A stretch of DNA of 56,441 bases from Pseudomonadota bacterium (lineage in GTDB: Bacteria > Desulfobacterota > WTBG01 > JAGOGO01), in NCBI GenBank assembly GCA_043798555.1, contig JAZDOO010000406.1, positions 1 to 56,441 on the forward strand, read 5' to 3'. Under the pieces are notes generated by a model that saw only the letters and a list, made by a program, of their open reading frames with translations, was not told the DNA's origin and did no database searches. Position numbers and translations under genes: made by a program. Positions 21,153-56,441 of this stretch are shown here, one piece after another. Numbering within the stretch: the stretch's first letter is position 1; the number at the start of each line of letters is the position of its first letter.

Positions 21153-21165
21153 TTACTCAGTTTCC

Positions 21166-23639: not shown

Positions 23640-23652
23640 TTAGCCCCCTTTG

Positions 23653-24396: not shown

Positions 24397-24501
24397 GACT
24401 ATAACCCTTTCTTACCTATGCAAAGGTATTGGCCACAGTTTGATATTGGCATATAACGGGCTGGAAAGGTTATCGAGACAAGATTCTGCGCGGTATAGCC
24501 T

Positions 24502-32737: not shown

Positions 32738-32817
32738 AATTACCTCCTTTGGATATATACTTTCAGGGCGGCCTTGATGATGGACCGCCCTCAATCGGTT
32801 CTTTTTACCCCATGTAA

Positions 32818-34362: not shown

Positions 34363-34518
34363 TGGACCTCCTCCTTAAAAAGGTTAACTTTTACCATTTA
34401 CCATTCACGATCTTCTTACCCGTAAAAAACCAGGTAATCAGGTTGCACCACCTCCTTCTTTGCTGAATTAGTTTTACTACCGCCAACGTCCAGTTACCTA
34501 TCTTCATCATGCCTTCTT

Positions 34519-36870: not shown

Positions 36871-36891
36871 ACCTTCTCCTCCCATCAATGA

Positions 36892-40791: not shown

Positions 40792-40824
40792 TCCTCAGGA
40801 TCCCTTTCTTTCACTTTTTCCGCC

Positions 40825-40867
40825 TTTAGGTAGTTTTTCCTATCCCATTTTAGGTAGTATATCCTAT
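40825..40867 (+). repeat. Tandem direct repeat TTTAGGTAGT(T/A)T(T/A)TCCTAT, period 24 bp
   Basis: Copies at 40825..40843 and 40849..40867, identical at 17 of 19 positions. It starts 34 nt after the response-regulator stop and lies upstream of the carboxylase operon. The reverse complement contains TACCTAA, close to the NarL heptamer TACYYMT. Confidence 0.45.
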
Positions 40868-40952
40868 TGCGTTCGACGCCAATTTGGAATTAAATCGCCT
40901 GGTATAAGATTAACAAGGTTTAGCTGTTTATGGATCAAAGCCTTTAAGCCTA

Positions 40953-40969
40953 TGGGAACCGCAATTGCA
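40953..40969 (+). promoter_or_regulatory. Weak sigma54-like -24/-12 element
   Basis: In TGGGAACCGCAATTGCA, reading GGGAAC-N5-TTGCA gives correct GG-N10-GC spacing, about 100 nt upstream of the ATG at 41070. No enhancer-binding protein gene is in the window. Confidence 0.2.
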
Positions 40970-41025
40970 TAATTTCTCAAGTGAAGCTTATCATTTTATG
41001 ACAATGAGCGTGCATCTTATCCATG

Positions 41026-41035
41026 ACTATCTATG
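41026..41035 (-). promoter_or_regulatory. Motif copy CATAGATAGT (inverted orientation)
   Basis: The plus strand reads ACTATCTATG, embedded in ATGACtatctATGAC, 35 nt upstream of the first carboxylase gene. Confidence 0.35.
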
Positions 41036-41069
41036 ACACTACATTTTTTAAAAGAGAGGGATTGGGAAA

Positions 41070-43058: not shown

Positions 43059-43064
43059 AGAGTC

Positions 43065-43439
43065 ATGGGGGAAAGAATACAAGTAACCGAATACTTGGGC
43101 TTGGACCTCGGGGAAGACTTCTGGTTTTGCAGACAATGTAATCATAAATTAATCTCCGCTCGGGAAAACTACAAGAAGGGCTGCCTTGTATATGATCGAG
43201 ACCCAATGGACATTCATCCCCCTCTCATTGATGAAGAGATCAATTTTGCACCAGATCCTGCCTGGATTCGGATCCTGGAATTTTATTGTCCGAAGTGCGG
43301 AACCCAGATAGAAACTGAATATCTCCCACCTGGACATCCGATAACTCATGACCTTGAAATTGATATAGACCGATTAAAAGAACGGTTAAGCAATGGCGAA
43401 TACGTTATTAAAGATAAGAGGATTGAGGTAAGCGAGTGA
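43065..43439 (+). CDS. Acetone/acetophenone-carboxylase small (gamma-type) Zn-ribbon subunit
   Basis: 124 aa with two Cys pairs, CRQCNHKL and CPKCGTQIE. Its position between two HyuA genes and its size of about 14.5 kDa fit the gamma-type subunit. Confidence 0.65.
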   Translation: MGERIQVTEYLGLDLGEDFWFCRQCNHKLISARENYKKGCLVYDRDPMDIHPPLIDEEINFAPDPAWIRILEFYCPKCGTQIETEYLPPGHPITHDLEIDIDRLKERLSNGEYVIKDKRIEVSE

Positions 43440-45559
43440 ATACTTTAGATATAGATGTGGGCGGAACGTTCACCGATGCCGTTTTAAACTTCGATGGAAA
43501 GGTTATGCTTAAAAAGGTTCCAACAACCCCGTATGACCTTTCCGTATGTTTTGTCAATGTCATTGAAGAAGGGGCTAAAGAAATTAACATCACGCTTGAA
43601 AAATTTCTGCCAAGATTAGATGTTATAAGGTATTCCACGACCATTGCTATGAATAGGCTTCTGGAAAGGAAAGGGCCCGCTTTGGGTCTCATTACTACCG
43701 AAGGGCATGAAGATGCGATCCTTATTGGGAAAGGGGCACAGTGGACAGATGGAAAGAGGGTTACGGAAAGGAGGAACCTCGCAGTCCAAGAAAAACCAGT
43801 CCCATTGATTCCCCGGGATATGATAGTAGGAGTCAAAGAAAGAGTAGATTCATTTGGGAAGGTGCTCCGTCCTCTGGATGAAAATGACGTTCGAAGGAAA
43901 GTCTACTATTTGATTGACAAAGGAACCCGAGGCTTTGTTGTTTCCCTCCTTTGGTCTCATATAAATCCCATCCATGAAAAAAGGGTAAAAAAAATCATTA
44001 GAGAAGAATACAAAGAATACTACTTAGGTTATTTGCCAATAGTGTTAGCTCATGAGGTCATAGGTCGATCGGGAGAATACCAAAGAACCATGACCGCTAT
44101 CCTCGATGCTTATCTCCACCGGGCGATGCAGATTGAGCTTTCAGCGATGTGGGATAAATTGCGAGAATATGGTTACGCCGGTCCTTTCATGATGGTTCAT
44201 AATTCTGGGGGAATGGCTGAAGTTTTTAAGACTGATGCTATTCGAACGTACAATGCAGGGCCGGTTTCTGGATTGATAGGATCTTATTACTTGGGCCAAG
44301 AATTAGGGTACCGGAATATAATTGGCACTGATGTGGGTGGAACCAGTTTTGATATCGGTTTGGTTGTCGAGCAGGACGTGAGGAATTATGAATTCAGGCC
44401 AATCATTGATACCTGGATGGTTGGAATAACGATGCTTCAAACTTTTTCAATAGGTGCAGGTGGTGGTTCTATCGCTCGGATTAACGAATCAGCGGGTAAT
44501 ATTTTGGAAGTGGGGCCCCAAAGTGCGGGCTCTTACCCTGGCCCAGTTTCCTATAATCTTGGAGGGTCAGAACCAACAGTAACAGACGCAGACCTGGTTC
44601 TTGGATATATCAATCCGGATTTCTATTACGGGGGAAGGATGCAATTGCATCCAGAGTTGGCTCTGGATGCAATTAAAGAAAAAATCGCTACCCCTTTAGG
44701 GATCGATGTAATCGAAGCCGCATACCTTATAAAAAAGGTAGTAGATAGCAATATGGCATCCGCAATTCGGAAAGAAATCAACTTGCGAGGTTATGACCCT
44801 AAAGAGTTCATCCTTTTCGCCTTTGGGGGTGGAGGGCCGACCCACGTTGCCGGCTATTTGCAAGATATTCCACTGGCTATTATTTTCCCCTTTTCGCCGG
44901 TATTTTCTGCTATAGGTTCTTCCTTTATGGATATCGTTCATATATACGAGTTCTCCCGTCGCTTTATGCTTATGGAACCCATCACAAGAAAATTCGTTGG
45001 AGATTACACGGAATTTAATAACGTAGTGAGAGCGTTAATAGATAGAGCAAAAAAAGAGGTCGAAGGAGAAGGACTCGCAGCAGCTCAGGTTATTTTTAAG
45101 GTTGAATTAGATATGCTTTATGGAGGCCAGGCGCAACGAAAAAGGTCGCTTTCTCCGGTAATATTTATTGAGACCGAGAAAGATGCGGAAGCGATTTATT
45201 ATGAATTTGAAAAGGAGTTTAGCGAAACATTCAGTCCCTTGGTCGTTCATCCTGAGGGCGGAGTGTACATAGAAAACATAGTCCTAAGAGCAACTATCCC
45301 TACAAAAAAAACAAAATTCTCAAAACATCCTGTAGAAAAAGAAGATCCTTCACTTGCCCTAAAAGGTACAAGAAGGGTTTACTGGGGAGACAGGGTCTTC
45401 ACTGAGACAAAAATCTTTGCTCAAGAACTGCTCCGCCCCGGAAACGTAGTGAACGGGCCAGCTATTATCGAGGCCGACTATACAACTATTTCGGTTCCAC
45501 CAGAATTTCTCTTTAGGATAGATGAGTTTAGTTTTGGAAGACTTAATCGAAAATCATAA
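43436..45559 (+). CDS. Hydantoinase/oxoprolinase A (HyuA)-family ATPase subunit
   Basis: 707 aa. Canonical LDIDVGGTFTDAVL and GTDVGGTSFD. The GTG start overlaps the preceding stop (GTGA, 43436..43439). Confidence 0.8.
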   Translation: MNTLDIDVGGTFTDAVLNFDGKVMLKKVPTTPYDLSVCFVNVIEEGAKEINITLEKFLPRLDVIRYSTTIAMNRLLERKGPALGLITTEGHEDAILIGKGAQWTDGKRVTERRNLAVQEKPVPLIPRDMIVGVKERVDSFGKVLRPLDENDVRRKVYYLIDKGTRGFVVSLLWSHINPIHEKRVKKIIREEYKEYYLGYLPIVLAHEVIGRSGEYQRTMTAILDAYLHRAMQIELSAMWDKLREYGYAGPFMMVHNSGGMAEVFKTDAIRTYNAGPVSGLIGSYYLGQELGYRNIIGTDVGGTSFDIGLVVEQDVRNYEFRPIIDTWMVGITMLQTFSIGAGGGSIARINESAGNILEVGPQSAGSYPGPVSYNLGGSEPTVTDADLVLGYINPDFYYGGRMQLHPELALDAIKEKIATPLGIDVIEAAYLIKKVVDSNMASAIRKEINLRGYDPKEFILFAFGGGGPTHVAGYLQDIPLAIIFPFSPVFSAIGSSFMDIVHIYEFSRRFMLMEPITRKFVGDYTEFNNVVRALIDRAKKEVEGEGLAAAQVIFKVELDMLYGGQAQRKRSLSPVIFIETEKDAEAIYYEFEKEFSETFSPLVVHPEGGVYIENIVLRATIPTKKTKFSKHPVEKEDPSLALKGTRRVYWGDRVFTETKIFAQELLRPGNVVNGPAIIEADYTTISVPPEFLFRIDEFSFGRLNRKS

Positions 45560-45571
45560 TGAGGAGCGAAG

Positions 45572-47635
45572 ATGTCCATACCAACCGCTGAGCAAAAACT
45601 CCAATGGTTGAAGCCAGCTCCCTTGGCAAAAAACGAGTCGGAGTGCGTAGATAAGCTTGCAACGGGAGAGTTTGAAGTTGGGTTTGAAAGAACCAATAAT
45701 ATCCTGGATGAGGCTATGGAAGTCTTTGAACGATCTGCTCGAACATCTATGGGAATTGCGGGCGATTCCATGGTAGCCCTTTTTACCGCAAGTGGAGATT
45801 TAGCCAATGCGAGTTGTGGCACTTATCTTCATGCAGTTATTCAACCTGTATTAATCAAGTTTATTCTTAACAACTATGCTGAGAATCCTGGAATCAACGA
45901 TGGAGATATTTGGTTCACTAATGACGCACTCTATGGAGGAATTCACAACCCCGATCAGGTATGTGTAATGCCCATCTTTTACAAAGACGAGCTTATCGGG
46001 TGGGCAGGAGCTGCTAATCACACAACCGAGACCGGAGCGATAGAGCCTGGTGGGATGCCAATTACCGCAACAAGCAGGTTTGCAGAGGGAATGAATTTCC
46101 CTCCTATTAAAATAGGAGAAAATTTTAGAATTAAGAACGATTTTTTAGAATTGCTATCAGCCTTTGCAATTCGAGCTCCTCAGATGGTGATCATAGATCT
46201 TAAAGCAAGAGCCTCTGCTGCAGATAGAGTCAGAAAAAGAATCGTGGAGATGGCAGAAGATAAGGGCGGTGATTATGTAAAAGGTTTGCTAAGGAAAATG
46301 TTGATGGCGGCGGAAAATGGGGCGAGGAAAAGAATTCGTTCATTTCCTGATGGGAAGTACAGGTGTGTGAATTTCGCTGACAGTGTTGGTTTTGAGTCGG
46401 GTTTACTGCGTACGGCCTACTTAACTTTGACGAAAGAAGATGACCAGATTACCCTGGATTTTTCAGGAACCTCCCCTGAAACTCCCTATTCATACAATGC
46501 CCATGTTCAGGCTGTCGTTGGGCATATTTCAAACTTTGTTTTTGAGTATGTTTTCCATGACCTGCCTATAAGTAATGCCACCTTTGCCTCTATTAATTTC
46601 ATTTTCCCTAAGGGAAGTTGTTTAAATCCAGACATAAGGGCAGCCACCAGTAATTCAGTAATGATCTCAACCGGCGTCATGAGTAGCTTGCATAACTGTT
46701 TTAGCAAAATGATGATGGTGACCAACGAGCATTGGAAGCAAGTATCTGCCTCACAAGGTAATGCAGGGAATGCGATGGTTCTTTCCGGGCTTTCTCAGTG
46801 GAAACTCCCCTTTGCTGACATGTTGGCCTATTCACTAAACAGCGAAGGCCAAGGCGCAAGGGCCACGAAGGATGGCGTCAATGCCTTTGGTTTTCCCTGG
46901 TGTGTATTTGGGAGGACACCAGATGTTGAGGAAATGGAAAATGAATTTCCCATAACCATTCCGCTCTCCAATCATTGGAAGGATTCCTGTGGGCACGGAA
47001 AATATCGGGGTGGTGTGGGGACCATACAAGTCTGGGTGGCACACCATACGCAACGGGTCTATTTTATGGCTATAGCTGACAATAGTAAAATCCAGACACC
47101 GCAACCCCTTTTTGGCGGGTATGCCCCCGGTACAGTTCCTGGAATTTCTGCAACTAACACAGATTTTTATGAGAAAATGTCTTCCGGATCTCCTGATTTA
47201 ACCTGGGATTTCCGAGAATTAATTAAAAATAAAACTATCAAAGGTCAATGGTCCTATGAATACTTTGCGAGAGCCACCAGACCATTCAGCGAGGGGGATA
47301 TTATAACCTTTGGATTTGCTACCGGTGGTTCTGGTTATGGCGACCCATTGGACAGGGATCCTGAACTGGTCATAAAGGATCTAAGGGATGAGGTCATTTC
47401 TCACTGGTCAGCCAAAAATATTTACAAAGTCGCCTACGATGAAAAGCGGCTTAAAGTCAATCAGGAAGAAACGAGGAAGCTTAGGGAAGAAGAAAAGAAG
47501 GCCCGGCTTAAAAGAGGAAAGCCTTACAGCGAATTTGGAAAGGAATGGGTGAAAAAGAAACCACCTGAAGCGATCCTAAAGTTTTATGGTTCATGGCCTG
47601 ATGCCAAGGTACTGACCCACATCTTTAGGCCTTGA
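45572..47635 (+). CDS. Hydantoinase B/oxoprolinase (HyuB)-family subunit
   Basis: 687 aa. DGDIWFTNDALYGGIHNPDQ and GGSGYGDPLDRDPELV are typical HyuB blocks. RBS GAGGAG. Confidence 0.8.
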   Translation: MSIPTAEQKLQWLKPAPLAKNESECVDKLATGEFEVGFERTNNILDEAMEVFERSARTSMGIAGDSMVALFTASGDLANASCGTYLHAVIQPVLIKFILNNYAENPGINDGDIWFTNDALYGGIHNPDQVCVMPIFYKDELIGWAGAANHTTETGAIEPGGMPITATSRFAEGMNFPPIKIGENFRIKNDFLELLSAFAIRAPQMVIIDLKARASAADRVRKRIVEMAEDKGGDYVKGLLRKMLMAAENGARKRIRSFPDGKYRCVNFADSVGFESGLLRTAYLTLTKEDDQITLDFSGTSPETPYSYNAHVQAVVGHISNFVFEYVFHDLPISNATFASINFIFPKGSCLNPDIRAATSNSVMISTGVMSSLHNCFSKMMMVTNEHWKQVSASQGNAGNAMVLSGLSQWKLPFADMLAYSLNSEGQGARATKDGVNAFGFPWCVFGRTPDVEEMENEFPITIPLSNHWKDSCGHGKYRGGVGTIQVWVAHHTQRVYFMAIADNSKIQTPQPLFGGYAPGTVPGISATNTDFYEKMSSGSPDLTWDFRELIKNKTIKGQWSYEYFARATRPFSEGDIITFGFATGGSGYGDPLDRDPELVIKDLRDEVISHWSAKNIYKVAYDEKRLKVNQEETRKLREEEKKARLKRGKPYSEFGKEWVKKKPPEAILKFYGSWPDAKVLTHIFRP

Positions 47636-47645
47636 GAGTACCTCA

Positions 47646-48599
47646 ATGTCTCGGGTTAAGAACGAGTGTCTCAGGAAAGGTAAGCTTTTTGTCCCGATAA
47701 TCTTTTCGTTCGGTGCGGGGCTAGAAAACTTACCTTTGAAGGAATTCTTGGAGGACCCAACAAAGATTTCCAATTCCCTCCGAACGATCCATAACTATTT
47801 TCGCGTTGATGGTGTGGTTTGCGCTGATAAGACAATCTTACCTGAGGCCCTCGGATGTCATGTTGACTGGAGCAAATCCCCCCCCTTAATCCAACCCTCG
47901 TCAGCGAAAATAGATGAATTGGGTACCTGTGCGACGAACCTTTTTGAAAAAGGACGGGTGAAGACCGCTGTAGAAGTGACGCGAAGGCTCAGCATTCTTT
48001 TACCCGAAGCTTTCTTGATGGGTTTAGTTACAGGGCCATTGACACTGGCTGGCCAACTCACAGGACTCTCAGAAGCTGAGATTTTTGGTCATCGAGATCT
48101 CTTATCAATAACCAGTAATGCAATACTTACCTATTCTAAAGGTCTTTGCGACGCAGGTATTGACCTCCTTCTTTTTTCAGAAAGAGAGCTTCCGGGTTTA
48201 GACGAACAATCCCTAAAACAGTTGCGCCGATGTTATTCCCCGATCTGGAATACGGTTAGGTTCTATGAGGCTTTCCCTCTCCTGATGGTCGAAAACTTCT
48301 CACCGGAAGATGTCAACCTCATTAGTAAGGTTGTGGACGACCTAATCTTACCTGGTGGCTACGTTCCCGATAACTTGCAAAAGTTTAAGAGACTTTCGTT
48401 CGCTTTACCCGTTTCATTGCTTGAAAATGAGCCCGAAGACATTGAATCTTTTCTCGTAAAAAGCAGCATTGTCGCTGCCTTGAATTCTTCGACTCTCTTT
48501 CTATTGACAACCGACTCTGAGGTCCCCGGAAGCATTCATAAAGAATTTTTGATCAGAGGAGTTCAATCGATCAGGGACTTCCTGAAAAAAGGACCATAG
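47646..48599 (+). CDS. Uroporphyrinogen-decarboxylase (URO-D/MtaA)-fold family protein
   Basis: 317 aa. FLEDPTKISNSLRTIHNYFRVDGVVCADKTILPEALGCHVDWSKSPPLI follows the URO-D family N-terminal pattern (accessory helix, D..., ..EA.G). It starts 10 nt after the HyuB stop. Confidence 0.5.
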   Translation: MSRVKNECLRKGKLFVPIIFSFGAGLENLPLKEFLEDPTKISNSLRTIHNYFRVDGVVCADKTILPEALGCHVDWSKSPPLIQPSSAKIDELGTCATNLFEKGRVKTAVEVTRRLSILLPEAFLMGLVTGPLTLAGQLTGLSEAEIFGHRDLLSITSNAILTYSKGLCDAGIDLLLFSERELPGLDEQSLKQLRRCYSPIWNTVRFYEAFPLLMVENFSPEDVNLISKVVDDLILPGGYVPDNLQKFKRLSFALPVSLLENEPEDIESFLVKSSIVAALNSSTLFLLTTDSEVPGSIHKEFLIRGVQSIRDFLKKGP

Positions 48600-48773
48600 G
48601 GCGGCGCCGATACGGCCCTTTCCCTCTGGCGCATATTCGTTAGAGGGAAATGAGATTCTCCTATGTAAAGGCTCCGTCGGTAACTGCTTGGGCAGTGAAT
48701 CACTGCTGCCAATAAGTTAACGTTTTCATAGTCAACACAAGATAACCAAACCCTGCATACAAGGAGGAACGCC

Positions 48774-50120
48774 ATGAATATTACTTTGGAGAAGGCTACG
48801 GAAACCTTTAAGAAAAAGTTCAAAAAATCAGGGGGACTATGTGAGAGGGGGAGCAAATGGATTCCTGGAGGGTACAGCAGACATAGTCTTACCTTTGGGC
48901 CGCACGCTATCTATGTGGATCATGGGGAAGGCCAGTTCATTTACACGGTGGACGGGCATCGATTGCTTGACTTTCACAATAATTTTAGTTGCAGTGTCCT
49001 TGGACATAACCACCCCAAAATTAGACAGGCCCTGCTGGAATTAGTTCCGAGGGGGTTTTCTTTCGGCAACCCGATGGAACATGAGCACCGCTTAGCAGAG
49101 ATAATTTGTGAGCGGATCGAGTCGGTGGAGAAGGTTATATTTTCGTGTTCTGCAAGTGAGTCATGTCTCAGCGCGATTCGAATAGCCAGGGGAAATACCG
49201 GGAAAGACAAGATTGCTAAATTCGAGGGAGGTTATCATGGTATGGGTGATGAGTTTATGTTGTCACTCCATCCTTACCCGTACTTTTTCAGGGGTCCGGC
49301 AACTCGACCGATAGGATGGCCAAATACTGCGGGGATTCCATCGCATATTCAGCAAAATGTAGTTATTTTACCCCAGAACGATCTCGAAAGTTGTGAGCGG
49401 ATCCTGAAGGATGATGCTAAAGACTTAGCCTGCGTTATAATCGAGCTCCAGACAAGTGCGGGTGGTGCAATGGTGATGGAAAAAGAATTCGTGCATGGGC
49501 TTCGAGCAATTACTCAAGAGTTAGGTATCCTCCTGATTATAGATGAGACTGTGACCTTACGTACCTTCTATCACGGCATGCAAGGCTTCTATGGAGTCAA
49601 GCCCGATTTAACGGTGATGGGGAAAGTAATAGGGGGCGGTTTACCAATAGGGGCGGTAGGGGGACAGGAGAAATATTTCCATATGCACGAAACCGGGAAA
49701 GTCTATCACTCAGGTACTCATCATGGCCATCCCCTTGCAACTGCCGCTGGTATTGCCTGTATGGAAGTACTGGATGAGGTGACGTGTAATCGTATCAATA
49801 AAATGGGAGACCGACTTGCGCATGAACTCAACACCTGGGCTACTGAGAATACTTATCCATTTTATGTAATCGGTCATGGAGGTCATTTAGGATACGAATT
49901 TACCGATAAGCCAGGAAGAGTCTACCGGTCATGCCGTGATATGTTGGAGTATTCTAATGAAGAGCGTATGGCGACGTTTGCCTTTGAAATGGCAAATCGT
50001 GATATCTTCCCAATGTATCGAGGACTGATTGCTCTGTCAGAGCCAATGAATGATAATGATATTGACCTTTTTATCAATACCAGCAAGGAGCTTGTAGAAG
50101 GTATTCTTGCCGCTTCGTGA
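48774..50120 (+). CDS. Class III PLP aminotransferase, glutamate-1-semialdehyde aminomutase-like
   Basis: 448 aa. Motifs are LLDFHNNFSCSVLGHNHP and LIIDETVTLR, with the Schiff-base Lys in MGKVIGGGLPIGAVGG. RBS AAGGAGG. Confidence 0.8.
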   Translation: MNITLEKATETFKKKFKKSGGLCERGSKWIPGGYSRHSLTFGPHAIYVDHGEGQFIYTVDGHRLLDFHNNFSCSVLGHNHPKIRQALLELVPRGFSFGNPMEHEHRLAEIICERIESVEKVIFSCSASESCLSAIRIARGNTGKDKIAKFEGGYHGMGDEFMLSLHPYPYFFRGPATRPIGWPNTAGIPSHIQQNVVILPQNDLESCERILKDDAKDLACVIIELQTSAGGAMVMEKEFVHGLRAITQELGILLIIDETVTLRTFYHGMQGFYGVKPDLTVMGKVIGGGLPIGAVGGQEKYFHMHETGKVYHSGTHHGHPLATAAGIACMEVLDEVTCNRINKMGDRLAHELNTWATENTYPFYVIGHGGHLGYEFTDKPGRVYRSCRDMLEYSNEERMATFAFEMANRDIFPMYRGLIALSEPMNDNDIDLFINTSKELVEGILAAS

Positions 50121-50273
50121 GTTACATGCCAAGGGCTGATGAAAATTAGTTAAAGAAGGTAGTAAACCAAGATTTGCCTTTTGGTCTGAAGAAGGCTATA
50201 ATTTTGAAAAAAGGAAGCCTAATCAAGGTGCCGAGCCGAGTGATTAAGCTTGGGCATAAAAGGGAGGAAGAGC

Positions 50274-51602
50274 ATGCAAGAATATGGAAAATACTGGAAC
50301 GAACGCCTGGAAAGGTTGTCGCTGGAAGAATTCCATGAGGTCCAAGAAAAGGCGCTCTTGAGACAGCTTAAGTACGTAGGGGAGAATTCTGCTTTTTATC
50401 AGAGGAAATTCCGTAAAGCTGGACTTAAATTAGGAGACGTGAGAAGACTTGAAGACTTATCCAAGCTTCCCTTCACCGAGAAAAGTGAACTTCGTGACAG
50501 TCAAATGGAGAGTCCTCCTTTGGGTACTCATATTAGCTGTCCTATGAGCAAGGTAAAGAGGATATATTCCACGAGTGGGACTACTGGCAGGCCAACTTTT
50601 ATAGGCCTCACCGAGCATGACATAGATATGTGGCGTGAGACCGCTTGCAGGTCATTTTGGACTTGTGGACTCCGTGCTGATAGCATTGTGCCGCTCGTCG
50701 TGGCCCCCTTTTTAATAGCCGCCTCATACGCAGACGCTCTGCAAAAAATCGGTATGGTCGTTCCTATAGGAGTGGGAGCGACTGAAAGACTTATTGGGAC
50801 CTTTCAGTATATTGGGGCCAACGCCCTTTTGTCTACTTCCTCTTTCCCCTTACATTTTGCTGACTCCCTTGAGAAAAGAGGCATCGAACCAAAAAGCCTG
50901 GGGATTAAAATAATAGTGGCTGGAGGTGAGCCTGGGGCAGCTATTCCATCGGTCCGTCAGAAAGTTGAAGATATCTTCGGCTGCATATTCCTCGAAACGA
51001 TGGGAAACGGGGACATGTGTGGCCAAATGTGGGCGGAATGCGAATATAAACAGGGAATGCACTTCATTGCCCAAGGAATTGTTCACCCAGAAATAGTCGA
51101 CCCTGATACGGGCGAGGTGTTAGATATAAGGGAGGGAACTAAGGGCGAGTTAGTCTACACTGCTCTTGAGCGAGAGTGTATTCCCTTGGTTCGCTTTAGG
51201 ACGCGGGATCATATCGAAGTCACGCAGACAACGTGTAAGTGTGGGCGAACAGGATTTGGCATACGTGTTTTCGGGAGAACGGATGACATGATTATTGTTC
51301 AAGGAGTTAATGTATATCCTGCGGCAGTTCGGGATATAGTAGCAAGTTTAGCTCCTCGAACAACTGGTATTATCGAGGTTCAGTTATACGCTCCTCCTCC
51401 AAAAGGATGGGAGCCACCGATTCACATAAAGGTAGAATACGGGGAAGAGTCAGGGGATTTGGGTTCTCTCAAGAAGGAGACTGAATCTTTGATAAGGGAA
51501 AATCTAATCTTTCGTGCTGATGTTGAGCTAGTACCGGCAGGGAGCCTGCCGAGATACGAATACAAAGCTAAGTTAGTAAGAAAGCTGTATGAGAAAAAAT
51601 AG
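50274..51602 (+). CDS. Phenylacetate-CoA ligase (PaaK)-family CoA ligase, second copy
   Basis: LERLSLEEFHEVQEKALLRQL...FYQRKF is the N-terminal pattern and STSGTTGRPTF the nucleotide loop. The start is set at the ATG at 50274, behind GGGAGGAAG. Confidence 0.75.
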   Translation: MQEYGKYWNERLERLSLEEFHEVQEKALLRQLKYVGENSAFYQRKFRKAGLKLGDVRRLEDLSKLPFTEKSELRDSQMESPPLGTHISCPMSKVKRIYSTSGTTGRPTFIGLTEHDIDMWRETACRSFWTCGLRADSIVPLVVAPFLIAASYADALQKIGMVVPIGVGATERLIGTFQYIGANALLSTSSFPLHFADSLEKRGIEPKSLGIKIIVAGGEPGAAIPSVRQKVEDIFGCIFLETMGNGDMCGQMWAECEYKQGMHFIAQGIVHPEIVDPDTGEVLDIREGTKGELVYTALERECIPLVRFRTRDHIEVTQTTCKCGRTGFGIRVFGRTDDMIIVQGVNVYPAAVRDIVASLAPRTTGIIEVQLYAPPPKGWEPPIHIKVEYGEESGDLGSLKKETESLIRENLIFRADVELVPAGSLPRYEYKAKLVRKLYEKK

Positions 51603-51727
51603 AAATCAGTCAATCTGAGAAGACTTAGGAGAACGGGTTCATTCAATGCTCCCGAAAATCGAATGAATTTTAAGAGTAAGCATTGAGATAATAAGAAAAT
51701 AATGCCAAAAGGTAAGGAGATAAATAA

Positions 51728-53815
51728 ATGGGCAATAAAGGATATGCGGTTGGAGTAGATATCGGAGGGACATTCACAGATTTAGTCGCGATAGACGAAG
51801 AAGGAAATAGAACGGTCATTAAGACACCCAGTACCCCAGAAGATCCTTCTCTCGGAATGGTTAACGCACTCAAATTGGCAGCCGAAAGTTTAGAGATAGA
51901 TTTCAGTGAATTCTTAGGGAAGGTTTCGAGGATCTGCCATGGAACAACGGTCACGACCAATGCGGTCATTACTCGTTCTGGAGCCAAAATGGGCATGCTT
52001 ACCACAAAAGGGGTGAGAGACACGATAGAAGTCCGCCGAGGAATGAGAGAGCTCGAATACTTATATGATTACACATACTCCCAGCCTGAGCCATTATGTC
52101 CAAGAAATTTGAGAATCCCCATCGAAGAGAGGGTACAAGCTGATGGTTCAGTATATATTCCATTGAACGAGGATCAGGTTCGTAATGGAATAAAAAAATT
52201 TAGAAAAGAAGGGGTAGAGGCAATAGCAATCTGTTTTCTGTGGTCCTTTAGAAATCCAAGACATGAGCTGCGGGCAGCGGAGATATGTCGAGAGGAATTT
52301 CCAGAAGCTTACCTAAGTCTTTCCCATGAAGTTGCTCCAATCTTAGGAGAGTATCTCCGATTTCAGTCCACAACGATAAATGGGTACGTAGGTCCTATCA
52401 TCAAAAGATATATGACCTCTATGCGAAAAACACTGAATGATGCCGGGTATAAGGGGGCACTCCTCATTGTAACTTCCAGTGGAGGGGTGATGAGTCCTGA
52501 GGCAATTATGGAAAAAGCTGGCGTTACCCTGACGTCAGGTCCGGCAACTGGTCCGGTCGCTGGCATCTGGTATGGAGATCTTTACGGCATTGGCAGTTTA
52601 ATAACCATGGACATGGGCGGTACTAGCTTTGATACTTCTCTGGTCAAGAATCGGGAGATCTCAATTAGAGCTGGTCAAGTAGTGGCAGGAGTTTACCATA
52701 TTGGCTTACCCACAGTAGATGTTCATGCTATCGGTGCTGGCGGAGGAACTGTCGCCTGGTTGGATGAGGCAGGGGGAATCCATGTGGGGCCTCAAAGTGC
52801 CGGAGCTGATCCGGGGCCGGCTTGCTATATGAAAGGGGGTACAGAACCTACCGTCACCGATGCCAATTTAGTGCTGGGACGGTTAAACCCCGATTATTTT
52901 GTAGGTGGAAAGATCAAACTAAACAAAGACGCTTCAATAAAGGCCATTAAAAAAATTGCCGAGCCTAAAGGCATGACAGTGGAAGAAATTGCGAGGGCAA
53001 TTATCACTATTGCTGTTGTGAATATGACTGATGCTACCGAGGTCATAACAATTCGGCGAGGTGAAAATCCAAAAGATTACGGATTGCTTGTTGGTGGAGG
53101 AGCAGGCCCAGGCCATGCAGCTCAACTTGCTAAGACATTAGAGATTAAAAAGGTCATCATCCCTAGAGAATCTTCCATTTTCTGTGCCATGGGAGGAATT
53201 ATCTCGGATATTAGACATGATTATATTACCAGTTTAGAAACGCCCACTGAGGAGTTAGACTGGCGAAAAATAAATAACATAGTGAAAAGCATGAAAGCTG
53301 ACGCAAATAAAATGTTGACTGAAGAGAATGTCCCCATAGAAGAACGGTCGTATAGATTCTCTGCGGATATGAAATATATCGGGCAGTATCACGAAATCGA
53401 TGTCCAATGGCCTGATAAACAGAACTTCGCATATTCAGAAAAGGACATACCTGAAATTGTCGACCGGTTTCATGAAAGGCATGAGACCCTCTATGCCCAC
53501 CGCGATGAGGAAGGAAAAACATTTACTTCAAATCTTAAGTTAGCTGCTTTCGGTCACGTATCAAAAATAACGGCCAGGTTGATGCCTATTGGTGATAAAG
53601 ATACCAGTAAATACCAAAAAGGTACCCGCGATGTTTGGTTTGAAGAAACAGGCTTTACCCCCACACCAATCTATGATGGTGATGCCATGTTGCCAGGAGT
53701 GAAAGTTAAAGGACCTTGTGTCATTGAGCAAAGGACAACTACTATCGTTGTTCCACCTGAACACAGTGTTGAGGTTAGTGAATATGGAGATTTTATGATG
53801 AACGTACCAGTTTAG
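51728..53815 (+). CDS. Hydantoinase/oxoprolinase A (HyuA)-family ATPase subunit (second module)
   Basis: 695 aa. Motifs are VGVDIGGTFTDLVA and TMDMGGTSFD. Confidence 0.8.
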   Translation: MGNKGYAVGVDIGGTFTDLVAIDEEGNRTVIKTPSTPEDPSLGMVNALKLAAESLEIDFSEFLGKVSRICHGTTVTTNAVITRSGAKMGMLTTKGVRDTIEVRRGMRELEYLYDYTYSQPEPLCPRNLRIPIEERVQADGSVYIPLNEDQVRNGIKKFRKEGVEAIAICFLWSFRNPRHELRAAEICREEFPEAYLSLSHEVAPILGEYLRFQSTTINGYVGPIIKRYMTSMRKTLNDAGYKGALLIVTSSGGVMSPEAIMEKAGVTLTSGPATGPVAGIWYGDLYGIGSLITMDMGGTSFDTSLVKNREISIRAGQVVAGVYHIGLPTVDVHAIGAGGGTVAWLDEAGGIHVGPQSAGADPGPACYMKGGTEPTVTDANLVLGRLNPDYFVGGKIKLNKDASIKAIKKIAEPKGMTVEEIARAIITIAVVNMTDATEVITIRRGENPKDYGLLVGGGAGPGHAAQLAKTLEIKKVIIPRESSIFCAMGGIISDIRHDYITSLETPTEELDWRKINNIVKSMKADANKMLTEENVPIEERSYRFSADMKYIGQYHEIDVQWPDKQNFAYSEKDIPEIVDRFHERHETLYAHRDEEGKTFTSNLKLAAFGHVSKITARLMPIGDKDTSKYQKGTRDVWFEETGFTPTPIYDGDAMLPGVKVKGPCVIEQRTTTIVVPPEHSVEVSEYGDFMMNVPV

Positions 53816-53844
53816 AAAAATTTAAGGGAGGAGGTAATATAATT

Positions 53845-55626
53845 ATGAAAGTAAAAGATATGATACAAACAAGGATAGATCCTTTAGATTTTGAGGTAAT
53901 TAGCTGTGGGTTGAGGTCTGTTACTGAACAAATGACAGCAACAATGGAGCGAACAGCCCGTTCCCCTGAACATTTTGCAGGGCGAGACTATTCTATAGGA
54001 ATATTCGATAATAAGGGAAATACGGCTGCGATCTTTGAAGGCAACCCTATCCATGTTTATGCAATCCCTTTTTCGGCCAGGTCAGTGATAAAATTCTTCG
54101 GGGATGATTTAAGACCTGGGGATCAAATCTGGACAAATGATCCCTACTTCATTACTGGTAGCTGTGGCAGTCACTTACAAGATTGTACTATGTTATGCCC
54201 GGTCTTCTATAAAGATGAACTAATATTTTGGGCGGCTAATAGAGCCCATCAGGCAGATGTGGGTGGGTCGGTTGCAGGCGGTTACAATCCATCGGCAACC
54301 GACATTTATACTGAGGGAGTCCGGTATTCGCCGGTTAAAATTATGGAAAATTACAAAATCAGAAAAGATGTCTTCCATCTTCTCCTCTCAAACATGAGGT
54401 TTGCATATAAACAGAGGGGAGATTTACTTGCCATGATGGGATCAAACAGAAAGGGAGAAGAGGGCATGCTCAAAGTTATTGAACGGTATGGCCCAGAAAC
54501 GATTAGGACGTACCTCGAAGATTTATATGATTATAGTGAAAAGTTATTGCGAATTGAAATAGAGAAGTTACCTGATGGAACGTATTATGGTGAAGCGAAA
54601 GGTGAAGGCGGCCCTCGCTGCCCGCTGTTTACTGTGCGTGCTAAAGTCACTATTAAGGGGAGTGATATAACCATTGATTTCAGTGAGTCAGACCCCCAGG
54701 CACCAAGCTACATTAACAGTCCCTACTGTAATACGGTGAGCGCCAGCTGGATTGCATTGCTCACCACAGTGGGGAAGAAAATCCGTTATCTATCACAAGG
54801 GATAGAACGACCGGTGAAGATTATCACCAAACGAGGTACAGTGGTTGACCCAGTGGCCCCTGCACCAGTGAGTGCATGTACAAATTTTGCTGCCAAGCAA
54901 GTACTCAGTTCTATTTGGGTTGCCCTCGCTCAGATCGCTCCAGAAATTACTCCGGGTGGGTGGGGGACGATACCTTTTGAAATAATTACTGGTACCGACC
55001 CGAAGAAAGACAATGCCCCTTACGGTTCAATCGACTTCTTGACGTGCGGAAGTGGAACCGGAGCGATATGGGGAGTAGATGGTTGGGCTACCGGTACCCC
55101 GGAGATATGTAGTGGGACCCTCCATTATCCTGATATAGAATATTATGAAGACTTTATGCCCAATCGCTGGGATGTCTGGGAGATAGAACAAGACTCAGGT
55201 GCACCTGGGAAGTGGCGGGGGGGATTAGCTATGAGGACAGTCATTACTAATATTGGTGGTGAGGGATGGATTCACTCCGGTGGTCAGGGCTTTAAAGAAG
55301 AAACGAAGCCGGTTCCGGTTATTGCCAAAGGGAAACAACCCGAGCCGGTTAAAAGGTGGATTAAAGAGCCTGACGGATCAATAACTGATGCAAATGACTG
55401 TATTAGTTATCCATGGCATCCTGGCGCGGAGATGACCGTTATTTGCCAAGGAGGGTGCGGAGTAGGAGACCCTTTTGAGAGAGATGTCAAAAAAGTAAGA
55501 AAAGATGTAATTGAAGAAAAAGTATCGATAGGAGCGGCGAAAAGAGATTATGGGGTGGTGATTGACCCGGACACCTCGGAAATAAATTATGAAGAAACTG
55601 AAAAGACCCGTTCTTCGAGAAGATAA
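53845..55626 (+). CDS. Hydantoinase B/oxoprolinase (HyuB)-family subunit (second module)
   Basis: 593 aa. Motifs are GDQIWTNDPYFITGSCGSHLQD and CQGGCGVGDPFERD. RBS GGGAGGAGG. Confidence 0.8.
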   Translation: MKVKDMIQTRIDPLDFEVISCGLRSVTEQMTATMERTARSPEHFAGRDYSIGIFDNKGNTAAIFEGNPIHVYAIPFSARSVIKFFGDDLRPGDQIWTNDPYFITGSCGSHLQDCTMLCPVFYKDELIFWAANRAHQADVGGSVAGGYNPSATDIYTEGVRYSPVKIMENYKIRKDVFHLLLSNMRFAYKQRGDLLAMMGSNRKGEEGMLKVIERYGPETIRTYLEDLYDYSEKLLRIEIEKLPDGTYYGEAKGEGGPRCPLFTVRAKVTIKGSDITIDFSESDPQAPSYINSPYCNTVSASWIALLTTVGKKIRYLSQGIERPVKIITKRGTVVDPVAPAPVSACTNFAAKQVLSSIWVALAQIAPEITPGGWGTIPFEIITGTDPKKDNAPYGSIDFLTCGSGTGAIWGVDGWATGTPEICSGTLHYPDIEYYEDFMPNRWDVWEIEQDSGAPGKWRGGLAMRTVITNIGGEGWIHSGGQGFKEETKPVPVIAKGKQPEPVKRWIKEPDGSITDANDCISYPWHPGAEMTVICQGGCGVGDPFERDVKKVRKDVIEEKVSIGAAKRDYGVVIDPDTSEINYEETEKTRSSRR

Positions 55627-55751
55627 AGGAATTTACTCATAAAATTTGTGTTCGTAGGTTAGTTAACTTATACCTCATATTATTCACATTATACACATTG
55701 AAGGAGTTATTTCCTTCTGTCAATCAATCGTTGAACGAGGGGAATTGTGCC

Positions 55752-56441
55752 ATGGCAACTAAAAGTAAGTATAAAAAACTATTCGAGCCAGGCTTAATAG
55801 GAAATTTAGAGGTTGCTAATCGTATTGTTAAATCTCCCTTGACTACCGGAATGGGCAATATCGATGGGACCTTAAATGAGCGAGTAATAAGACACTATAG
55901 GGAGATGGCCCGAGGAGGAGCTGGCCTGGTGGTAGTGGAGTCTTCCTGGGTCGATTTTCTCGGCAGCAAGCCGGGATGCCAAGGTATGCTTGGAGTTGCG
56001 GACAATCAACATATCCCTGGGTTAATGTGGCTAGCCCGGACGATCAAAGATAACGGGGCGAAAGCCGCCCTCCAGTTAGAACACGCCGGGAGGCAAAAAA
56101 TGTTGGGAAACCCACCTATAAAAGCACCATCCCGGGTGCCGTGGGAGGAAGCAAAGATGATGGGGTTTCCTGTTCCGGAAGAACTCACTTTCGAAGAGAT
56201 TGAAGGGGTCATAGAGGCATTCGGAGATGCGGCCCTTCGCACTCAAATGGCTGGCTTTGATCTGGTCGAGCTTCAGGGCGCCCACGGATATTTAATCACT
56301 AACTTTCTTTCTTCCCGGACGAACAAACGTACCGACTGGTACGGAGGTAGCTTAGAAAACCGGATGCGTTTTTTACTCGAAGTCATAGCCAATATTCGGA
56401 AAAAGGTCGGGTCGAATTACCCTTTAAGCGTAAGGTTAAGC
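55752..56441 (+). CDS. Old Yellow Enzyme / 2,4-dienoyl-CoA-reductase-type FMN oxidoreductase (5' part; runs off the right edge)
   Basis: Hand translation from the ATG at 55752 gives MATKSKYKKLFEPGLIGNLEVANRIVKSPLTTG...ALQLEHAGRQ...GFDLVELQGAHGYLITNFLSSRTNKRTDWYGGSLENRMRFLLEV. It stays in frame to the last base. It is absent from the ORF track because it has no stop. Confidence 0.8.
   Translation, partial: MATKSKYKKLFEPGLIGNLEVANRIVKSPLTTGMGNIDGTLNERVIRHYREMARGGAGLVVVESSWVDFLGSKPGCQGMLGVADNQHIPGLMWLARTIKDNGAKAALQLEHAGRQKMLGNPPIKAPSRVPWEEAKMMGFPVPEELTFEEIEGVIEAFGDAALRTQMAGFDLVELQGAHGYLITNFLSSRTNKRTDWYGGSLENRMRFLLEVIANIRKKVGSNYPLSVRLS

Follow-up and report, generated by a model that had tools for sequence, protein, structure and literature searches.

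Gene organization of the locus

The stretch of DNA analysed here, 56,441 nucleotides at its full length and referred to below as the window, is part of an anaerobic aromatic-degradation island. From 41070 to 56441 it carries a single co-directional run of genes encoding an ApcABCDE-like carboxylase, a class III transaminase, a PaaK-like ligase, a hydantoinase-type pair (HyuA2/HyuB2) and an OYE-type reductase, with every gene of the operon on the plus strand (Table 1). Open reading frames and profile matches agree with a preliminary description of this DNA, which had placed the transaminase and a PaaK-type ligase co-directionally between an Apc-like module and a HyuA/HyuB pair. The gaps flanking the transaminase and ligase genes measure 125-175 bp. 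Promoter-like and terminator-like matches in the operon, including one promoter-like match at 50174-50202, are not commoner than in shuffled sequence, and co-transcription of the operon genes is therefore only plausible.

Table 1. Features of the window discussed in the text, with positions, strand and supporting evidence
Feature	Position	Strand	Evidence
Putative hydrophobic-substrate uptake set	31391-37989	-	Pfam matches; divergent from operon
DUF1329 protein (uptake set)	31391-32794	-	Pfam
DUF1302 protein (uptake set)	32818-34362	-	Pfam
MMPL/RND-like protein (uptake set)	34519-36888	-	Pfam
BNR/YCF48-like protein (uptake set)	36892-37989	-	Pfam
Two-component system, PAS histidine kinase	38571-40160	+	Sequence features
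Two-component system, LuxR-type response regulator	40126-40791	+	Sequence features
ApcA-like subunit (alpha', HyuA-type)	41070-43058	+	NF042960, 608.6 bits (cut-off 1250); Pfam Hydantoinase_A with N- and C-terminal domains
ApcB-like small gamma subunit (Acetone_carb_G)	43065-43439	+	NF042974, 193.8 bits (cut-off 250)
ApcC-like subunit (alpha, proposed ketone-activating)	43436-45559	+	989.6 bits, 60% identity over 698 aa to A. aromaticum 5l9w_B
ApcD-like subunit (beta, HyuB-type)	45572-47635	+	976.8 bits full length to 5l9w_A; NF042976, 1067.7 bits (cut-off 1500)
ApcE-like subunit (URO-D/MtaA fold)	47646-48599	+	NF042977, 1.1e-16, 61 bits (cut-off 450); Pfam URO-D, 2.4e-09
Class III PLP transaminase, 448 aa	48774-50120	+	Pfam Aminotran_3; AAGGAGG ribosome-binding site 7 nt upstream
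PaaK-like acyl-CoA ligase	50274-51602 (program ORF from TTG 50250)	+	AMP-binding_C_2; PaaK models and structures
HyuA2, alpha subunit of caprolactamase/hydantoinase-type ATP-dependent hydrolase	51728-53815	+	NF050156 (CapA), 659.8 bits (cut-off 1000)
HyuB2, beta subunit of HyuA2B2	53845-55626	+	Best solved structure caprolactamase 6yra_B, 300.8 bits
OYE/FadH-type Fe-S flavoenzyme, N-terminal 230 aa	55752-56441, cut by window end	+	Pfam Oxidored_FMN, 1e-55

Carboxylase, ligase and second hydantoinase-type pair

The five Apc-like genes (41070-48599) form a complete set in the order apcABCDE, and the best NCBIfam match of each ORF is the model of the corresponding Apc subunit. All five remain below the NCBIfam equivalog cut-offs (the ApcC-like subunit, for example, with 1058.8 bits against 1500), and the Apc branch so far holds a single characterised enzyme (PMC5214803). 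Cys22, Cys25, Cys75 and Cys78 of the ApcB-like protein coincide in position with the Zn site of Apc-gamma when the sequence is compared with the published one (PMC5214803). In the ApcC-like subunit five of the seven acetophenone-pocket residues are identical and the other two are conservatively replaced (L81M, F281Y), the pocket being a structural proposal only in the source paper.

The best NCBIfam models of the ligase are those of PaaK (TIGR02155, 230.2 bits against a cut-off of 646.3; NF041878, 242.4 bits against 700), and its best solved structures are the PaaK entries 4r1l and 2y27. Judged from these scores, the predicted enzyme is PaaK-like in fold only and does not reach equivalog level. 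It belongs to a subfamily that is very abundant in uncultured anaerobes, where it elsewhere follows HyuA-HyuB-UbiD genes. Its gene probably starts at ATG 50274 rather than TTG 50250, since a GGGAGG site is found there and the homologues are 441-444 aa long.

HyuB2 scores 369.6 bits against the CapB model (cut-off 1000); after caprolactamase, its structural matches include N-methylhydantoinase (184 bits) and ApcD (98.6 bits). Pfam and NCBIfam searches found no gamma subunit for HyuA2B2 among the window ORFs, and this two-subunit architecture matches that of caprolactamase (CapAB), with both subunits scoring below the cut-off of 1000. The closest relative (locus L086 and its duplicate contigs) is alone in sharing the pair and the OYE gene with the window; the block transaminase-ligase-HyuA2-HyuB2-OYE is retained there with identities of 75-87%: HyuA2 is 75% identical to its counterpart, and the OYE fragment is 87% identical to a 667-aa gene product that is BaiCD/bilirubin-reductase/FadH-like.

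A transaminase family distinct from HemL

The assignment of the central gene to the class III PLP enzymes, with an active-site lysine, made in the preliminary description is borne out by a match to Pfam Aminotran_3 (PF00202) of 1.6e-47 (162.6 bits, cut-off 30.5). The protein contains MGKVIGGGLPIG, and in all the HemLs and transaminases that were compared the PLP lysine lines up with its Lys284. This Schiff-base lysine and Asp257, which binds the pyridine nitrogen, are invariant in the family and aligned across all relatives. The AF2 model (pLDDT 90.8) superimposes on solved class III members with TM-scores of 0.87-0.88.

The highest raw scores belong to glutamate-1-semialdehyde aminomutases (308 bits in NCBIfam, 246 bits in the PDB), and several sources automatically annotate homologues of the transaminase as GSA aminomutase. 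That the gene encodes HemL itself, or a paralogue serving tetrapyrrole synthesis that lies here by chance, is nevertheless extremely improbable. The scores lie under all HemL cut-offs (287.1 bits against 527.3 for the hemL model TIGR00713; 308.4 against 398 for PRK00062). Phylogenetic placement, suggested in the preliminary description as a check, was carried out by neighbour joining on 103 sequences; the 35 members of the transaminase family group together as a separate clade (bootstrap 100/100) and lie outside a HemL clade that is spanned by three solved HemLs and holds 50 sequences, none of them from the family, its own bootstrap being negligible. The HemL signatures NSGTE, AGTLSGNP and DEVxT are replaced by CSASE, the three-histidine motif SGTHHGHP and DETxT, and G127, T128, V259, L316 and N319 are present in all 50 HemL-clade sequences. 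Arg416 is invariant in the family (35/35) and aligns with the switching arginine of the V. paradoxus beta-Phe transaminase, whereas the HemL clade has Ser in this column in 49 of 50 sequences with one gapped (MAFFT), and Glu is aligned there in the HMMER alignment. An insertion of eight residues is found at the HemL gating-loop region. None of 79 HemL-type control loci shares the window's neighbours, and profile searches of the window ORFs found no haem-synthesis genes within the 56 kb. HemL was accordingly rejected as the identity of this gene, and sequence comparison assigns the transaminase to a distinct, uncharacterised family inside the HemL-like subgroup of class III.

The top Foldseek match is StoTA (6K8H), a beta/gamma-amino acid transaminase, which also ranks third by sequence (242.9 bits), with two HemL structures 3 bits ahead of it; VpAT and MesAT, both beta-Phe transaminases, are likewise among the closest solved structures and sequences. 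StoTA, VpAT, MesAT, ForI and HemL, the nearest characterised relatives, all use carboxylate-bearing substrates. A comparison of active sites, also proposed in the preliminary description, gave a divided answer. Arg36, the N-terminal carboxylate binder (R41 in VpAT, R54 in MesAT), and Arg416 do not vary in any of the 35 members and align with the two VpAT arginines; Arg36 is shared with HemL too, and therefore Arg416 alone discriminates. Residue 70, on the other hand, is Asn in 34 of 35 members, as in StoTA, where VpAT has the Glu of the Crismaru aromatic beta-transaminase motif. The enzyme carries both arginines used by VpAT/MesAT-type beta-amino acid transaminases and may have such an activity; it shares 31% identity with VpAT, and its family, as a separate clade, falls outside that of VpAT and MesAT.

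Conservation of the gene neighbourhood

In many loci the transaminase remains linked to genes for a ketone carboxylase and for a PaaK-like ligase. Among 29 non-redundant family loci, 11 contain a hydantoinase-/Apc-type gene and five a PaaK-like ligase, compared with none of the 79 HemL-type control loci in either case (Fisher p = 1e-7 and p = 0.001, respectively). Carboxylase genes in Apc or Acx order adjoin a family member in L004, L006, L086, L088, L089, L095, L096, L098, L099 and L106, and an ApcE-like gene follows the carboxylase in L004, L006, L096 and L099 as well as in the window. Because it is seen again in unrelated contigs, the arrangement is no chance juxtaposition. About 60% of the family loci are without a carboxylase; short contigs account for many of these, and in one subclade the link is to a permease. 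A synteny search for the full combination, again suggested in the preliminary description, recovered the carboxylase and ligase partners, but the second HyuAB pair only in the closest relative.

The transaminase gene lies next to the ligase gene, not to the first carboxylase gene, in both the window and L086; in L086 a gamma-containing carboxylase of a different type from that of the window directly precedes it. The gene order in L006 is amidase-transaminase-ApcABCDE-ligase, with a conventional amidase at the equivalent position. A PQQ alcohol dehydrogenase gene adjoins the transaminase in L005 and L088 and lies within the same locus in L096. DUF1302/DUF1329/MMPL uptake genes occur in the window and beside the transaminase-carboxylase clusters of L004 and L006, and TonB-dependent receptors in L088, L089 and L099. 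A LuxR-type response regulator is also present in L099, after the ligase gene. In cultured isolates a family member is paired with an APC permease (amino-acid-type). The Priestia homologue has, in addition, an aldehyde dehydrogenase beside it, which is of a generic type and not a malonate-semialdehyde dehydrogenase.

Proposed pathway and alternatives

The cluster points to an undescribed route that brings amino compounds into anaerobic ketone breakdown. Our preferred reading, to which we give a probability of roughly 45%, is that the operon encodes an Apc-Bal-type ketone catabolic pathway with an added amino-group entry, leading from amine to ketone and, through carboxylation, to a beta-ketoacyl-CoA. 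The class III transaminase would take the amino group off a hydrophobic amine and hand it to a 2-oxo acid, the carbon skeleton of the amine being the ketone of the carboxylase, an acetophenone-like methyl ketone. The five-subunit Apc-type enzyme would then convert this ketone to a beta-keto acid with expenditure of ATP, and the PaaK-like ligase would turn the unstable beta-keto acid into a CoA thioester for thiolytic cleavage. HyuA2B2 and the OYE-type enzyme probably act upstream of the transaminase step, where they may release the amine from a cyclic amide, a role suggested by a single independent related contig and by analogy with the amidase of L006.

The analysis establishes what the genes are, that the transaminase is not HemL and that its linkage is conserved; from this we infer the direction of flow and the substrate class, like the roles of HyuA2B2 and the OYE-type enzyme. 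The position of the transaminase gene beside the ligase and not the first carboxylase gene counts against the preferred reading, as do the family loci that lack a carboxylase. A ketone is the likely hub of the pathway because PQQ alcohol dehydrogenases lie near the transaminase, comparable to the alcohol dehydrogenase Ped that feeds Apc in Aromatoleum (PMC4729919). The DUF1302/DUF1329/MMPL sets and TonB-dependent receptors nearby suggest a neutral or hydrophobic substrate, the identity of the ApcC-like subunit to Apc-alpha and its conserved pocket residues suggest an acetophenone-like ketone, and the pairing with APC permeases in isolates, and with an aldehyde dehydrogenase in Priestia, suggests an amine-to-carbonyl role. 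The first of two readings offered in the preliminary description, amine to ketone to carboxylation to CoA ester, fits the conserved link to carboxylase and ligase and is the one retained here.

The nearest characterised relatives raise a third option that the preliminary description missed, in which the transaminase may act on the beta-keto acid that the carboxylase produces and not on the ketone. Given the invariant carboxylate-binding Arg36, a simple amine is no better a fit as substrate than a beta- or gamma-amino acid. In this option the transaminase would interconvert a beta-amino acid such as beta-phenylalanine and a beta-keto acid such as benzoylacetate, the ligase would trap the keto acid as its CoA ester, and the carboxylase would recover ketone formed by spontaneous decarboxylation and also permit growth on free ketone. 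Transamination of beta-Phe does give benzoylacetate, which decarboxylates spontaneously to acetophenone (PMC6150868), the type of substrate suggested for the window's Apc. The kinship with StoTA, VpAT and MesAT, the two invariant arginines, the StoTA-like Asn70, the adjacency of transaminase and ligase genes and the amino-acid-type permeases of the isolates all argue for this main rival. We nevertheless consider it somewhat unlikely: a five-gene, two-ATP carboxylase would be uneconomical for salvage, the Apc-linked loci have genes for hydrophobic-substrate uptake and TonB-dependent receptors rather than amino acid transporters, the PQQ alcohol dehydrogenases and the amidase indicate a ketone or amine hub, and the Priestia aldehyde dehydrogenase is not of the malonate-semialdehyde type.

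The second reading of the preliminary description was a lactam route, in which lactam opening by HyuA2B2 would give an omega-amino acid, the transaminase would form the oxo acid and the ligase would activate it, leaving the Apc-like module as an unrelated neighbour. HyuB2 is indeed nearest to the caprolactamase subunit CapB and has no gamma partner, the block from transaminase to OYE is kept in L086 in spite of the other upstream carboxylase type, and CapAB is clustered with an omega-transaminase in P. jessenii (PMC6061476). Against this, the recurrent partner across the family is a gamma-subunit carboxylase and not a CapAB-like pair, and such a carboxylase directly precedes the transaminase even in L086. 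Orthologues of HyuB2 (at least 62% identity) fall into no more than 14 clusters, and neither a transaminase nor a ligase is present in the single long context that was inspected. The lactam reading fails for the widely conserved core because beyond the closest relative the second HyuAB pair is not found with the transaminase, and as an account of the window we consider it decidedly improbable.

A broader reading, which we consider improbable, would make the whole run one undescribed anaerobic pathway for neutral N-compounds: the OYE-type enzyme would saturate a lactam, HyuA2B2 would open the ring with ATP, the transaminase would yield a methyl ketone or keto acid, and Apc-type carboxylation would be followed by activation of the beta-keto acid for thiolysis. 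If true, this would give every biochemically odd gene of the operon a job, with an amidase substituting for the lactamase in relatives; it would imply a widespread catabolic logic that runs from an amide through amine and ketone to a beta-keto acid, and a new functional class of HemL-like transaminases.

Implications

Apc-type carboxylases of many uncultured bacteria are accompanied by a dedicated transaminase and a PaaK-like ligase, which implies amines or beta-amino acids as a substrate range so far overlooked for anaerobic ketone metabolism. The public label "glutamate-1-semialdehyde 2,1-aminomutase" on members of this family inflates apparent hemL counts and masks a predicted catabolic function. 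A carboxylase-coupled transaminase, whether acting before the ketone or at the beta-keto acid, is of interest in biocatalysis as a way of obtaining chiral amines or beta-amino acids with ketones and CO2 as starting materials. For bioremediation, the pathway may be relevant to what becomes of aromatic amines, amides or N-heterocycles where sediments and aquifers are anoxic.

Comparison with known systems

In line with the preliminary description, which knew of no such single operon, a search of the accessible literature found no published cluster of Apc with an aminotransferase. Its background statements hold as well: the benzoylacetate-CoA ligase gene bal follows the acetophenone carboxylase genes apcABCDE in Aromatoleum (PMC4729919), and the caprolactamase genes capAB are clustered with an omega-aminotransferase gene in P. 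jessenii (PMC6061476).

The apcABCDE-bal cluster of Aromatoleum aromaticum EbN1 has its five carboxylase genes in the identical order. The window's ApcC is 60% identical to its counterpart, ApcD matches at 977 bits over the full length, and the four-cysteine site of the gamma subunit is kept; an ApcE-like gene and a downstream CoA ligase are likewise shared, and the upstream sensor kinase and LuxR-type regulator stand at the position of AdiRS, the two-component system beside apc-bal (PMC4729919). In the window, by contrast, a transaminase gene separates apcE from the ligase gene, another HyuAB pair and an OYE gene lie downstream, and all five subunits score under the equivalog cut-offs.

The transaminase has the fold of StoTA (6K8H), VpAT (4AO9) and MesAT (2YKU), with TM-scores of 0.87-0.88, the PGGxSR motif with Arg36, Asn69-Asn70 as in StoTA, and Arg416 at the VpAT switch, but at 31-35% identity its family forms its own clade with its own CSASE, DETxT and SGTHHGHP motifs, and with Asn70 in place of the VpAT Glu. 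It is about 35% identical to HemL, belongs to the same subgroup with the same fold, and has both the PLP lysine and the N-terminal arginine in common with it; it differs in falling short of the hemL cut-off, in lying outside the clade, in Arg416 for Ser/Glu, in a longer gating-loop region and in its neighbourhood.

The caprolactam cluster of P. jessenii (CapAB, PjAT and 6-oxohexanoate dehydrogenase) likewise combines a gamma-less HyuAB-type ATP-dependent enzyme with a class III transaminase. The window's pair, however, scores 660 and 370 bits for CapA and CapB against cut-offs of 1000, its transaminase is of another class III subgroup, and it has a CoA ligase instead of an aldehyde dehydrogenase, as well as a ketone carboxylase. 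The ligase, finally, is a short (~440 aa) adenylate-forming enzyme with AMP-binding_C_2, like PaaK, its best solved relative, but differs from it in scoring 230-242 bits against cut-offs of 646-700 and in belonging to an abundant subfamily of uncultured anaerobes.

Gene arrangement

From the histidine kinase gene to the end of the window all genes run in one direction, with the Apc-like carboxylase genes followed by the aminotransferase, the ligase, a second HyuA/HyuB pair (HyuA2B2) and an Old Yellow Enzyme-type reductase (OYE). Gaps around the aminotransferase and ligase genes measure 125-175 bp, and promoter-like and terminator-like matches showed no excess over shuffled sequence in a scan in which the counts were equal, so that co-transcription is plausible but unproven. 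The preliminary description had located the aminotransferase and its motif MGKVIGGGLPIG (Lys284) correctly; the coordinates of its aminotransferase-ligase span (48774-51602) also stand, except that ATG 50274 is the likelier start of the ligase, as a GGGAGG site is found there and homologues have 441-444 residues.

Features of the window and of related loci (positions refer to the window unless a locus is named)
Feature	Position	Strand	Remark
Xanthine-dehydrogenase-family molybdenum hydroxylase	2257-5085	-	942 aa, fused 2Fe-2S domains
Amine-oxidase-like flavoprotein	6204-7781
Split molybdopterin oxidoreductase	9360-11553	-	~730 aa; three overlapping ORFs, different frames
Split-gene ORF	9360-9995	-	Molydop_binding
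Split-gene ORF	9812-10501	-	end of Molybdopterin domain
Split-gene ORF	10327-11553	-	Fe4S4 and N-terminal Molybdopterin domain
MBL-fold gene	11744-12631
MBL-fold gene	12919-13659
Activation and carboxylation module	13975-25938	-	phenol- or aniline-type
PpsA-like, weaker	13975-15624	-
Molybdopterin oxidoreductase	15820-17910	-
Second PaaK-like ligase	18261-19661	-
PpsB-like	20082-21152	-
PpsA-like	21166-23091	-	above PRK08296 cut-offs
HAD hydrolase	23653-24396	-
UbiD-family carboxylase	24502-25938	-	phenylphosphate-carboxylase-beta-like, 244 bits, below cut-off
PAS histidine kinase, then LuxR-type response regulator	from 38571	+	start of co-directional run to 56441
ApcA, ApcB, ApcC, ApcD, ApcE-like genes, in that order	within 38571-56441	+	best NCBIfam models
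Class III aminotransferase	48774-50120	+
PaaK-like ligase	50274 (probable start)-51602	+
HyuA2, HyuB2	51728-53815, 53845-55626	+	3' of ligase; no gamma subunit
OYE-family flavoenzyme	55752-56441	+	first 230 codons, to window end
L004, three family paralogues	3714-5054, 10001-11344, 20156-21344		62%, 68%, 53% identical to the window's
L122, family member and neighbours	7581-11235		52% identical
L002, homologue and downstream genes	13172-21341
L113, HyuAB-UbiD cluster	4372-13967

Elsewhere the window resembles an island for anaerobic aromatic degradation, with phenylphosphate-synthase-like genes, a UbiD-family carboxylase, a second PaaK-like ligase, molybdenum enzymes and a DUF1329/DUF1302/MMPL/BNR uptake set. 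One molybdopterin oxidoreductase gene is broken into three reading frames, either because two frameshifts have made it a pseudogene or because the assembly is wrong at this point.

The Apc-like carboxylase

ApcC aligns with Apc-alpha of A. aromaticum over 698 residues at 60% identity (989.6 bits), and ApcD with its Aromatoleum counterpart over the full length (976.8 bits), while the small subunit carries Cys22, Cys25, Cys75 and Cys78 at the metal-site positions of Apc-gamma. Of the seven residues that Weidenweber et al. proposed to line the acetophenone site, five are identical in ApcC and two conservatively replaced (L81M, F281Y). We nevertheless call the enzyme Apc-like, because all five subunits score below the NCBI equivalog cut-offs; it probably acts on a hydrophobic methyl ketone resembling acetophenone.

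A transaminase family distinct from HemL

Ranked by raw score, the best matches of the aminotransferase are HemL models and structures, and its relatives are often mis-annotated as HemL. The hemL model, however, gives 287 bits against a cut-off of 527, and the window enzyme is 50-87% identical to more than 120 protein clusters but about 35% identical to HemLs. A neighbour-joining tree built from 35 family members, six solved structures and 62 HemL-like genes taken from genomes recovers the family as monophyletic (100/100 bootstrap), outside the clade that three solved HemLs span; the placement asked for in the preliminary description separates it from HemL, and that the enzyme is a HemL is highly improbable. 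Midpoint rooting does not settle whether HemL or the beta-transaminases are the sister group of the family, and the enzyme is 31-35% identical to both alike.

Column by column, the family has CSASE, DETxT and SGTHHGHP where HemL has NSGTE, DEVxT and AGTLSGNP. In SGTHHGHP, three histidines directly follow the phosphate-binding threonine in the family alignment, and the class III motifs replaced are otherwise universal. In relatives the corresponding positions line the active site, and the histidine cluster is a candidate ligand for a metal or an anionic group.

The active-site comparison, also proposed earlier, finds two arginines aligned with those of beta-transaminases, of which only Arg416 is absent from HemL. 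Invariant in the family, Arg416 aligns with the switching arginine of the V. paradoxus beta-phenylalanine transaminase, and its position is never Arg in HemL-clade sequences (Ser with MAFFT, Glu in the HMMER alignment). Arg36, in the motif PGGxSR, and Asn69-Asn70 match StoTA, a beta/gamma-amino acid transaminase from Sphaerobacter in which R36 is the proposed holder of the substrate carboxylate; as Arg36 also aligns with the HemL substrate arginine, it does not discriminate. A replacement of HemL Arg32 by Leu, read from the HMMER alignment, was dropped as alignment-dependent, since MAFFT pairs the HemL arginine with Arg36. The AlphaFold model (pLDDT 90.8) has StoTA as its top Foldseek match, followed at the same TM score by HemLs, VpAT, MesAT and D-phenylglycine transaminase; with all matches at TM 0.83-0.89, Foldseek does not discriminate between HemL and beta-transaminases. 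Judged by its sequence, the enzyme is a true transaminase whose family, new within the HemL-like subgroup, stands equally far from HemL and from beta-transaminases.

Conservation of the neighbourhood

The combination of HyuAB, class III aminotransferase and PaaK for which a synteny search had been suggested does recur. Of 29 non-redundant family loci (359 kb), 11 contain a hydantoinase- or Apc-type gene and five a PaaK-like ligase, whereas the 79 HemL-type control loci (1.49 Mb) have neither (Fisher p = 1e-7 and p = 0.001, respectively), although both values somewhat overstate the evidence because the loci are phylogenetically non-independent. The controls derive from a scan of genome contigs with the full-length family alignment, which was overwhelmed by true HemLs, since the shared GKxIGGGLP motif was among the two patterns it chose; only one of its 80 loci (L006) belonged to the family, and the others were reused.

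Locus L006 is Apc-ordered, reading DUF1302-DUF1329-amidase-transaminase-ApcABCDE-ligase. The transaminase accompanies ApcA-B(-C) in L088 and L089, follows ApcABCDE in L096, where a second paralogue lies opposite, and stands in L099 after ApcCDE-ligase, a response regulator and a TonB-dependent receptor; Apc genes lie beside it in L095, L098 and L106. Two loci are Acx-ordered: L004, with HyuA-HyuB-gamma-transaminase-ApcE-like-ligase and three paralogues in 21 kb, and L086, with HyuA-HyuB-gamma-transaminase-ligase-HyuA2-HyuB2-197 aa-OYE. From transaminase to OYE, L086 is 75-87% identical to the window, whereas the carboxylase upstream of it belongs to another type (34% and 28% identity); the block is thus a module that combines with more than one kind of ketone carboxylase. 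On the 42 kb metagenome contig L004 the paralogues are interleaved with two HyuA/HyuB sets, a TetR and a sigma-54 regulator and DUF1302/DUF1329/MMPL uptake genes.

The context-annotated tree has three subclades, two of them carboxylase-linked. The third comprises cultured Agrobacterium, Mesorhizobium, Pseudomonas, Priestia and Desulfoscipio, mostly with an APC-family permease as partner, and was the only one recovered by a plasmid search. The Priestia homologue additionally has an aldehyde dehydrogenase, which proved to be of a generic type and not the malonate-semialdehyde dehydrogenase that would have pointed to a beta-alanine-type substrate. The Desulfoscipio homologue has no adjacent partner; on the D. 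gibsoniae chromosome (L002) an amino acid permease lies downstream, followed by glutamine-synthetase-like, GATase, GXGXG and glutamate-synthase-like genes that resemble the gamma-glutamyl-amide/N-methylglutamate route of amine utilisation. On an IncFII conjugative plasmid of Enterobacter sp. JJBC (L122), MBL-fold metallo-hydrolase genes flank the family member on both sides; the window also has MBL-fold genes.

The hydrolase and ligase branches

HyuA2B2 is assigned by sequence comparison to the hydrolase branch, its best solved relative being the caprolactamase CapB (300.8 bits), followed by N-methylhydantoinase, with ApcD at 98.6 bits. The one long context examined for a HyuB2 orthologue (TRAP transporter, luciferase-like monooxygenase, Rieske oxygenase) offered nothing that could be carried over to the window operon. 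Xanthine-dehydrogenase-family molybdenum hydroxylases convert N-heterocycles to lactams, which would be compatible with HyuA2B2 acting on a lactam. The window's hydroxylase of this family, encoded 45 kb away from the operon, neighbours genes for an MFS transporter, a GNAT acetyltransferase, a glyoxalase-fold protein and the amine-oxidase-like flavoprotein.

The ligase belongs to a PaaK-like subfamily very abundant in uncultured anaerobes. Ligases 73-77% identical to it occur in six other contigs, 3' of HyuA-HyuB-UbiD and 5' of ferredoxin and aldehyde:ferredoxin oxidoreductase genes, where the HyuAB are only 35% and 28% identical to HyuA2B2. A cluster conserved in several metagenomes (L113-L118; at least 9 and at least 23 contigs for the two ligase proteins queried) encodes a PaaK-like ligase 73-77% identical to that of the window, together with a TRAP transporter, HyuA (685 aa), HyuB (646 aa), a UbiD-family enzyme, ferredoxin, aldehyde:ferredoxin oxidoreductase, a 90-aa protein and an ABC transporter. 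Its gamma-less HyuAB and UbiD carboxylase suggest an ATP-dependent activation and carboxylation system, of which we know of no prior description.

Proposed pathway

We favour, with a probability of about 0.45, the first route of the preliminary description, in which the transaminase would supply a ketone pool from an amine, the Apc-type enzyme would carboxylate the ketone to a beta-keto acid and the ligase would form its CoA ester. This reading is preferred because every gene then has a necessary step, because an amidase lies directly 5' of the transaminase in L006, and because the linked uptake genes are hydrophobic-substrate or TonB-dependent and not amino acid transporters. PQQ alcohol dehydrogenases in three related loci, adjoining the transaminase in two (L005, L088), likewise suggest a ketone as hub. 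The weakest link, based on one related contig, is the role of the last part of the operon: the lactamase-type HyuA2B2 could fill the amidase role for a cyclic amide whose ring OYE would first saturate. The alternative that takes this hydrolase as its start, lactam opening to an omega-amino acid followed by transamination and CoA ester formation, is distinctly unlikely.

The main rival, rated about half as probable, places the transaminase at the beta-keto acid node, interconverting, for example, beta-phenylalanine and benzoylacetate: the nearest characterised relatives perform exactly that chemistry, both of their arginines are conserved, and benzoylacetate yields acetophenone spontaneously (PMC6150868), which Apc could recover. 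The remaining probability falls to unrelated neighbours or some further function.

Relation to known systems

Taken singly, the parts are of known kinds, namely an Apc-like carboxylase, a class III transaminase, a PaaK-like ligase and a CapAB-like hydrolase; the gene combination is conserved and the transaminase family uncharacterised. Literature searches that paired acetone or acetophenone carboxylase with transaminases or isopropylamine, and hydantoinase with PaaK and UbiD, turned up nothing relevant except caprolactamase papers, and no report of such a carboxylase sharing a cluster with a transaminase. The cluster is of interest because it points to a testable and apparently widespread way for amino compounds to enter ATP-dependent ketone carboxylation. 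In the known system Apc converts a methyl ketone to a beta-keto acid, from which a ligase then forms the CoA ester (PMC4729919, PMC5214803), and the ligases following ApcE in L004, L006 and L099, PaaK-like as in the window, hold the position of bal in Aromatoleum (PMC4729919). We rate the window cluster as a variant, not described before in the literature found, of this Apc-Bal ketone pathway.
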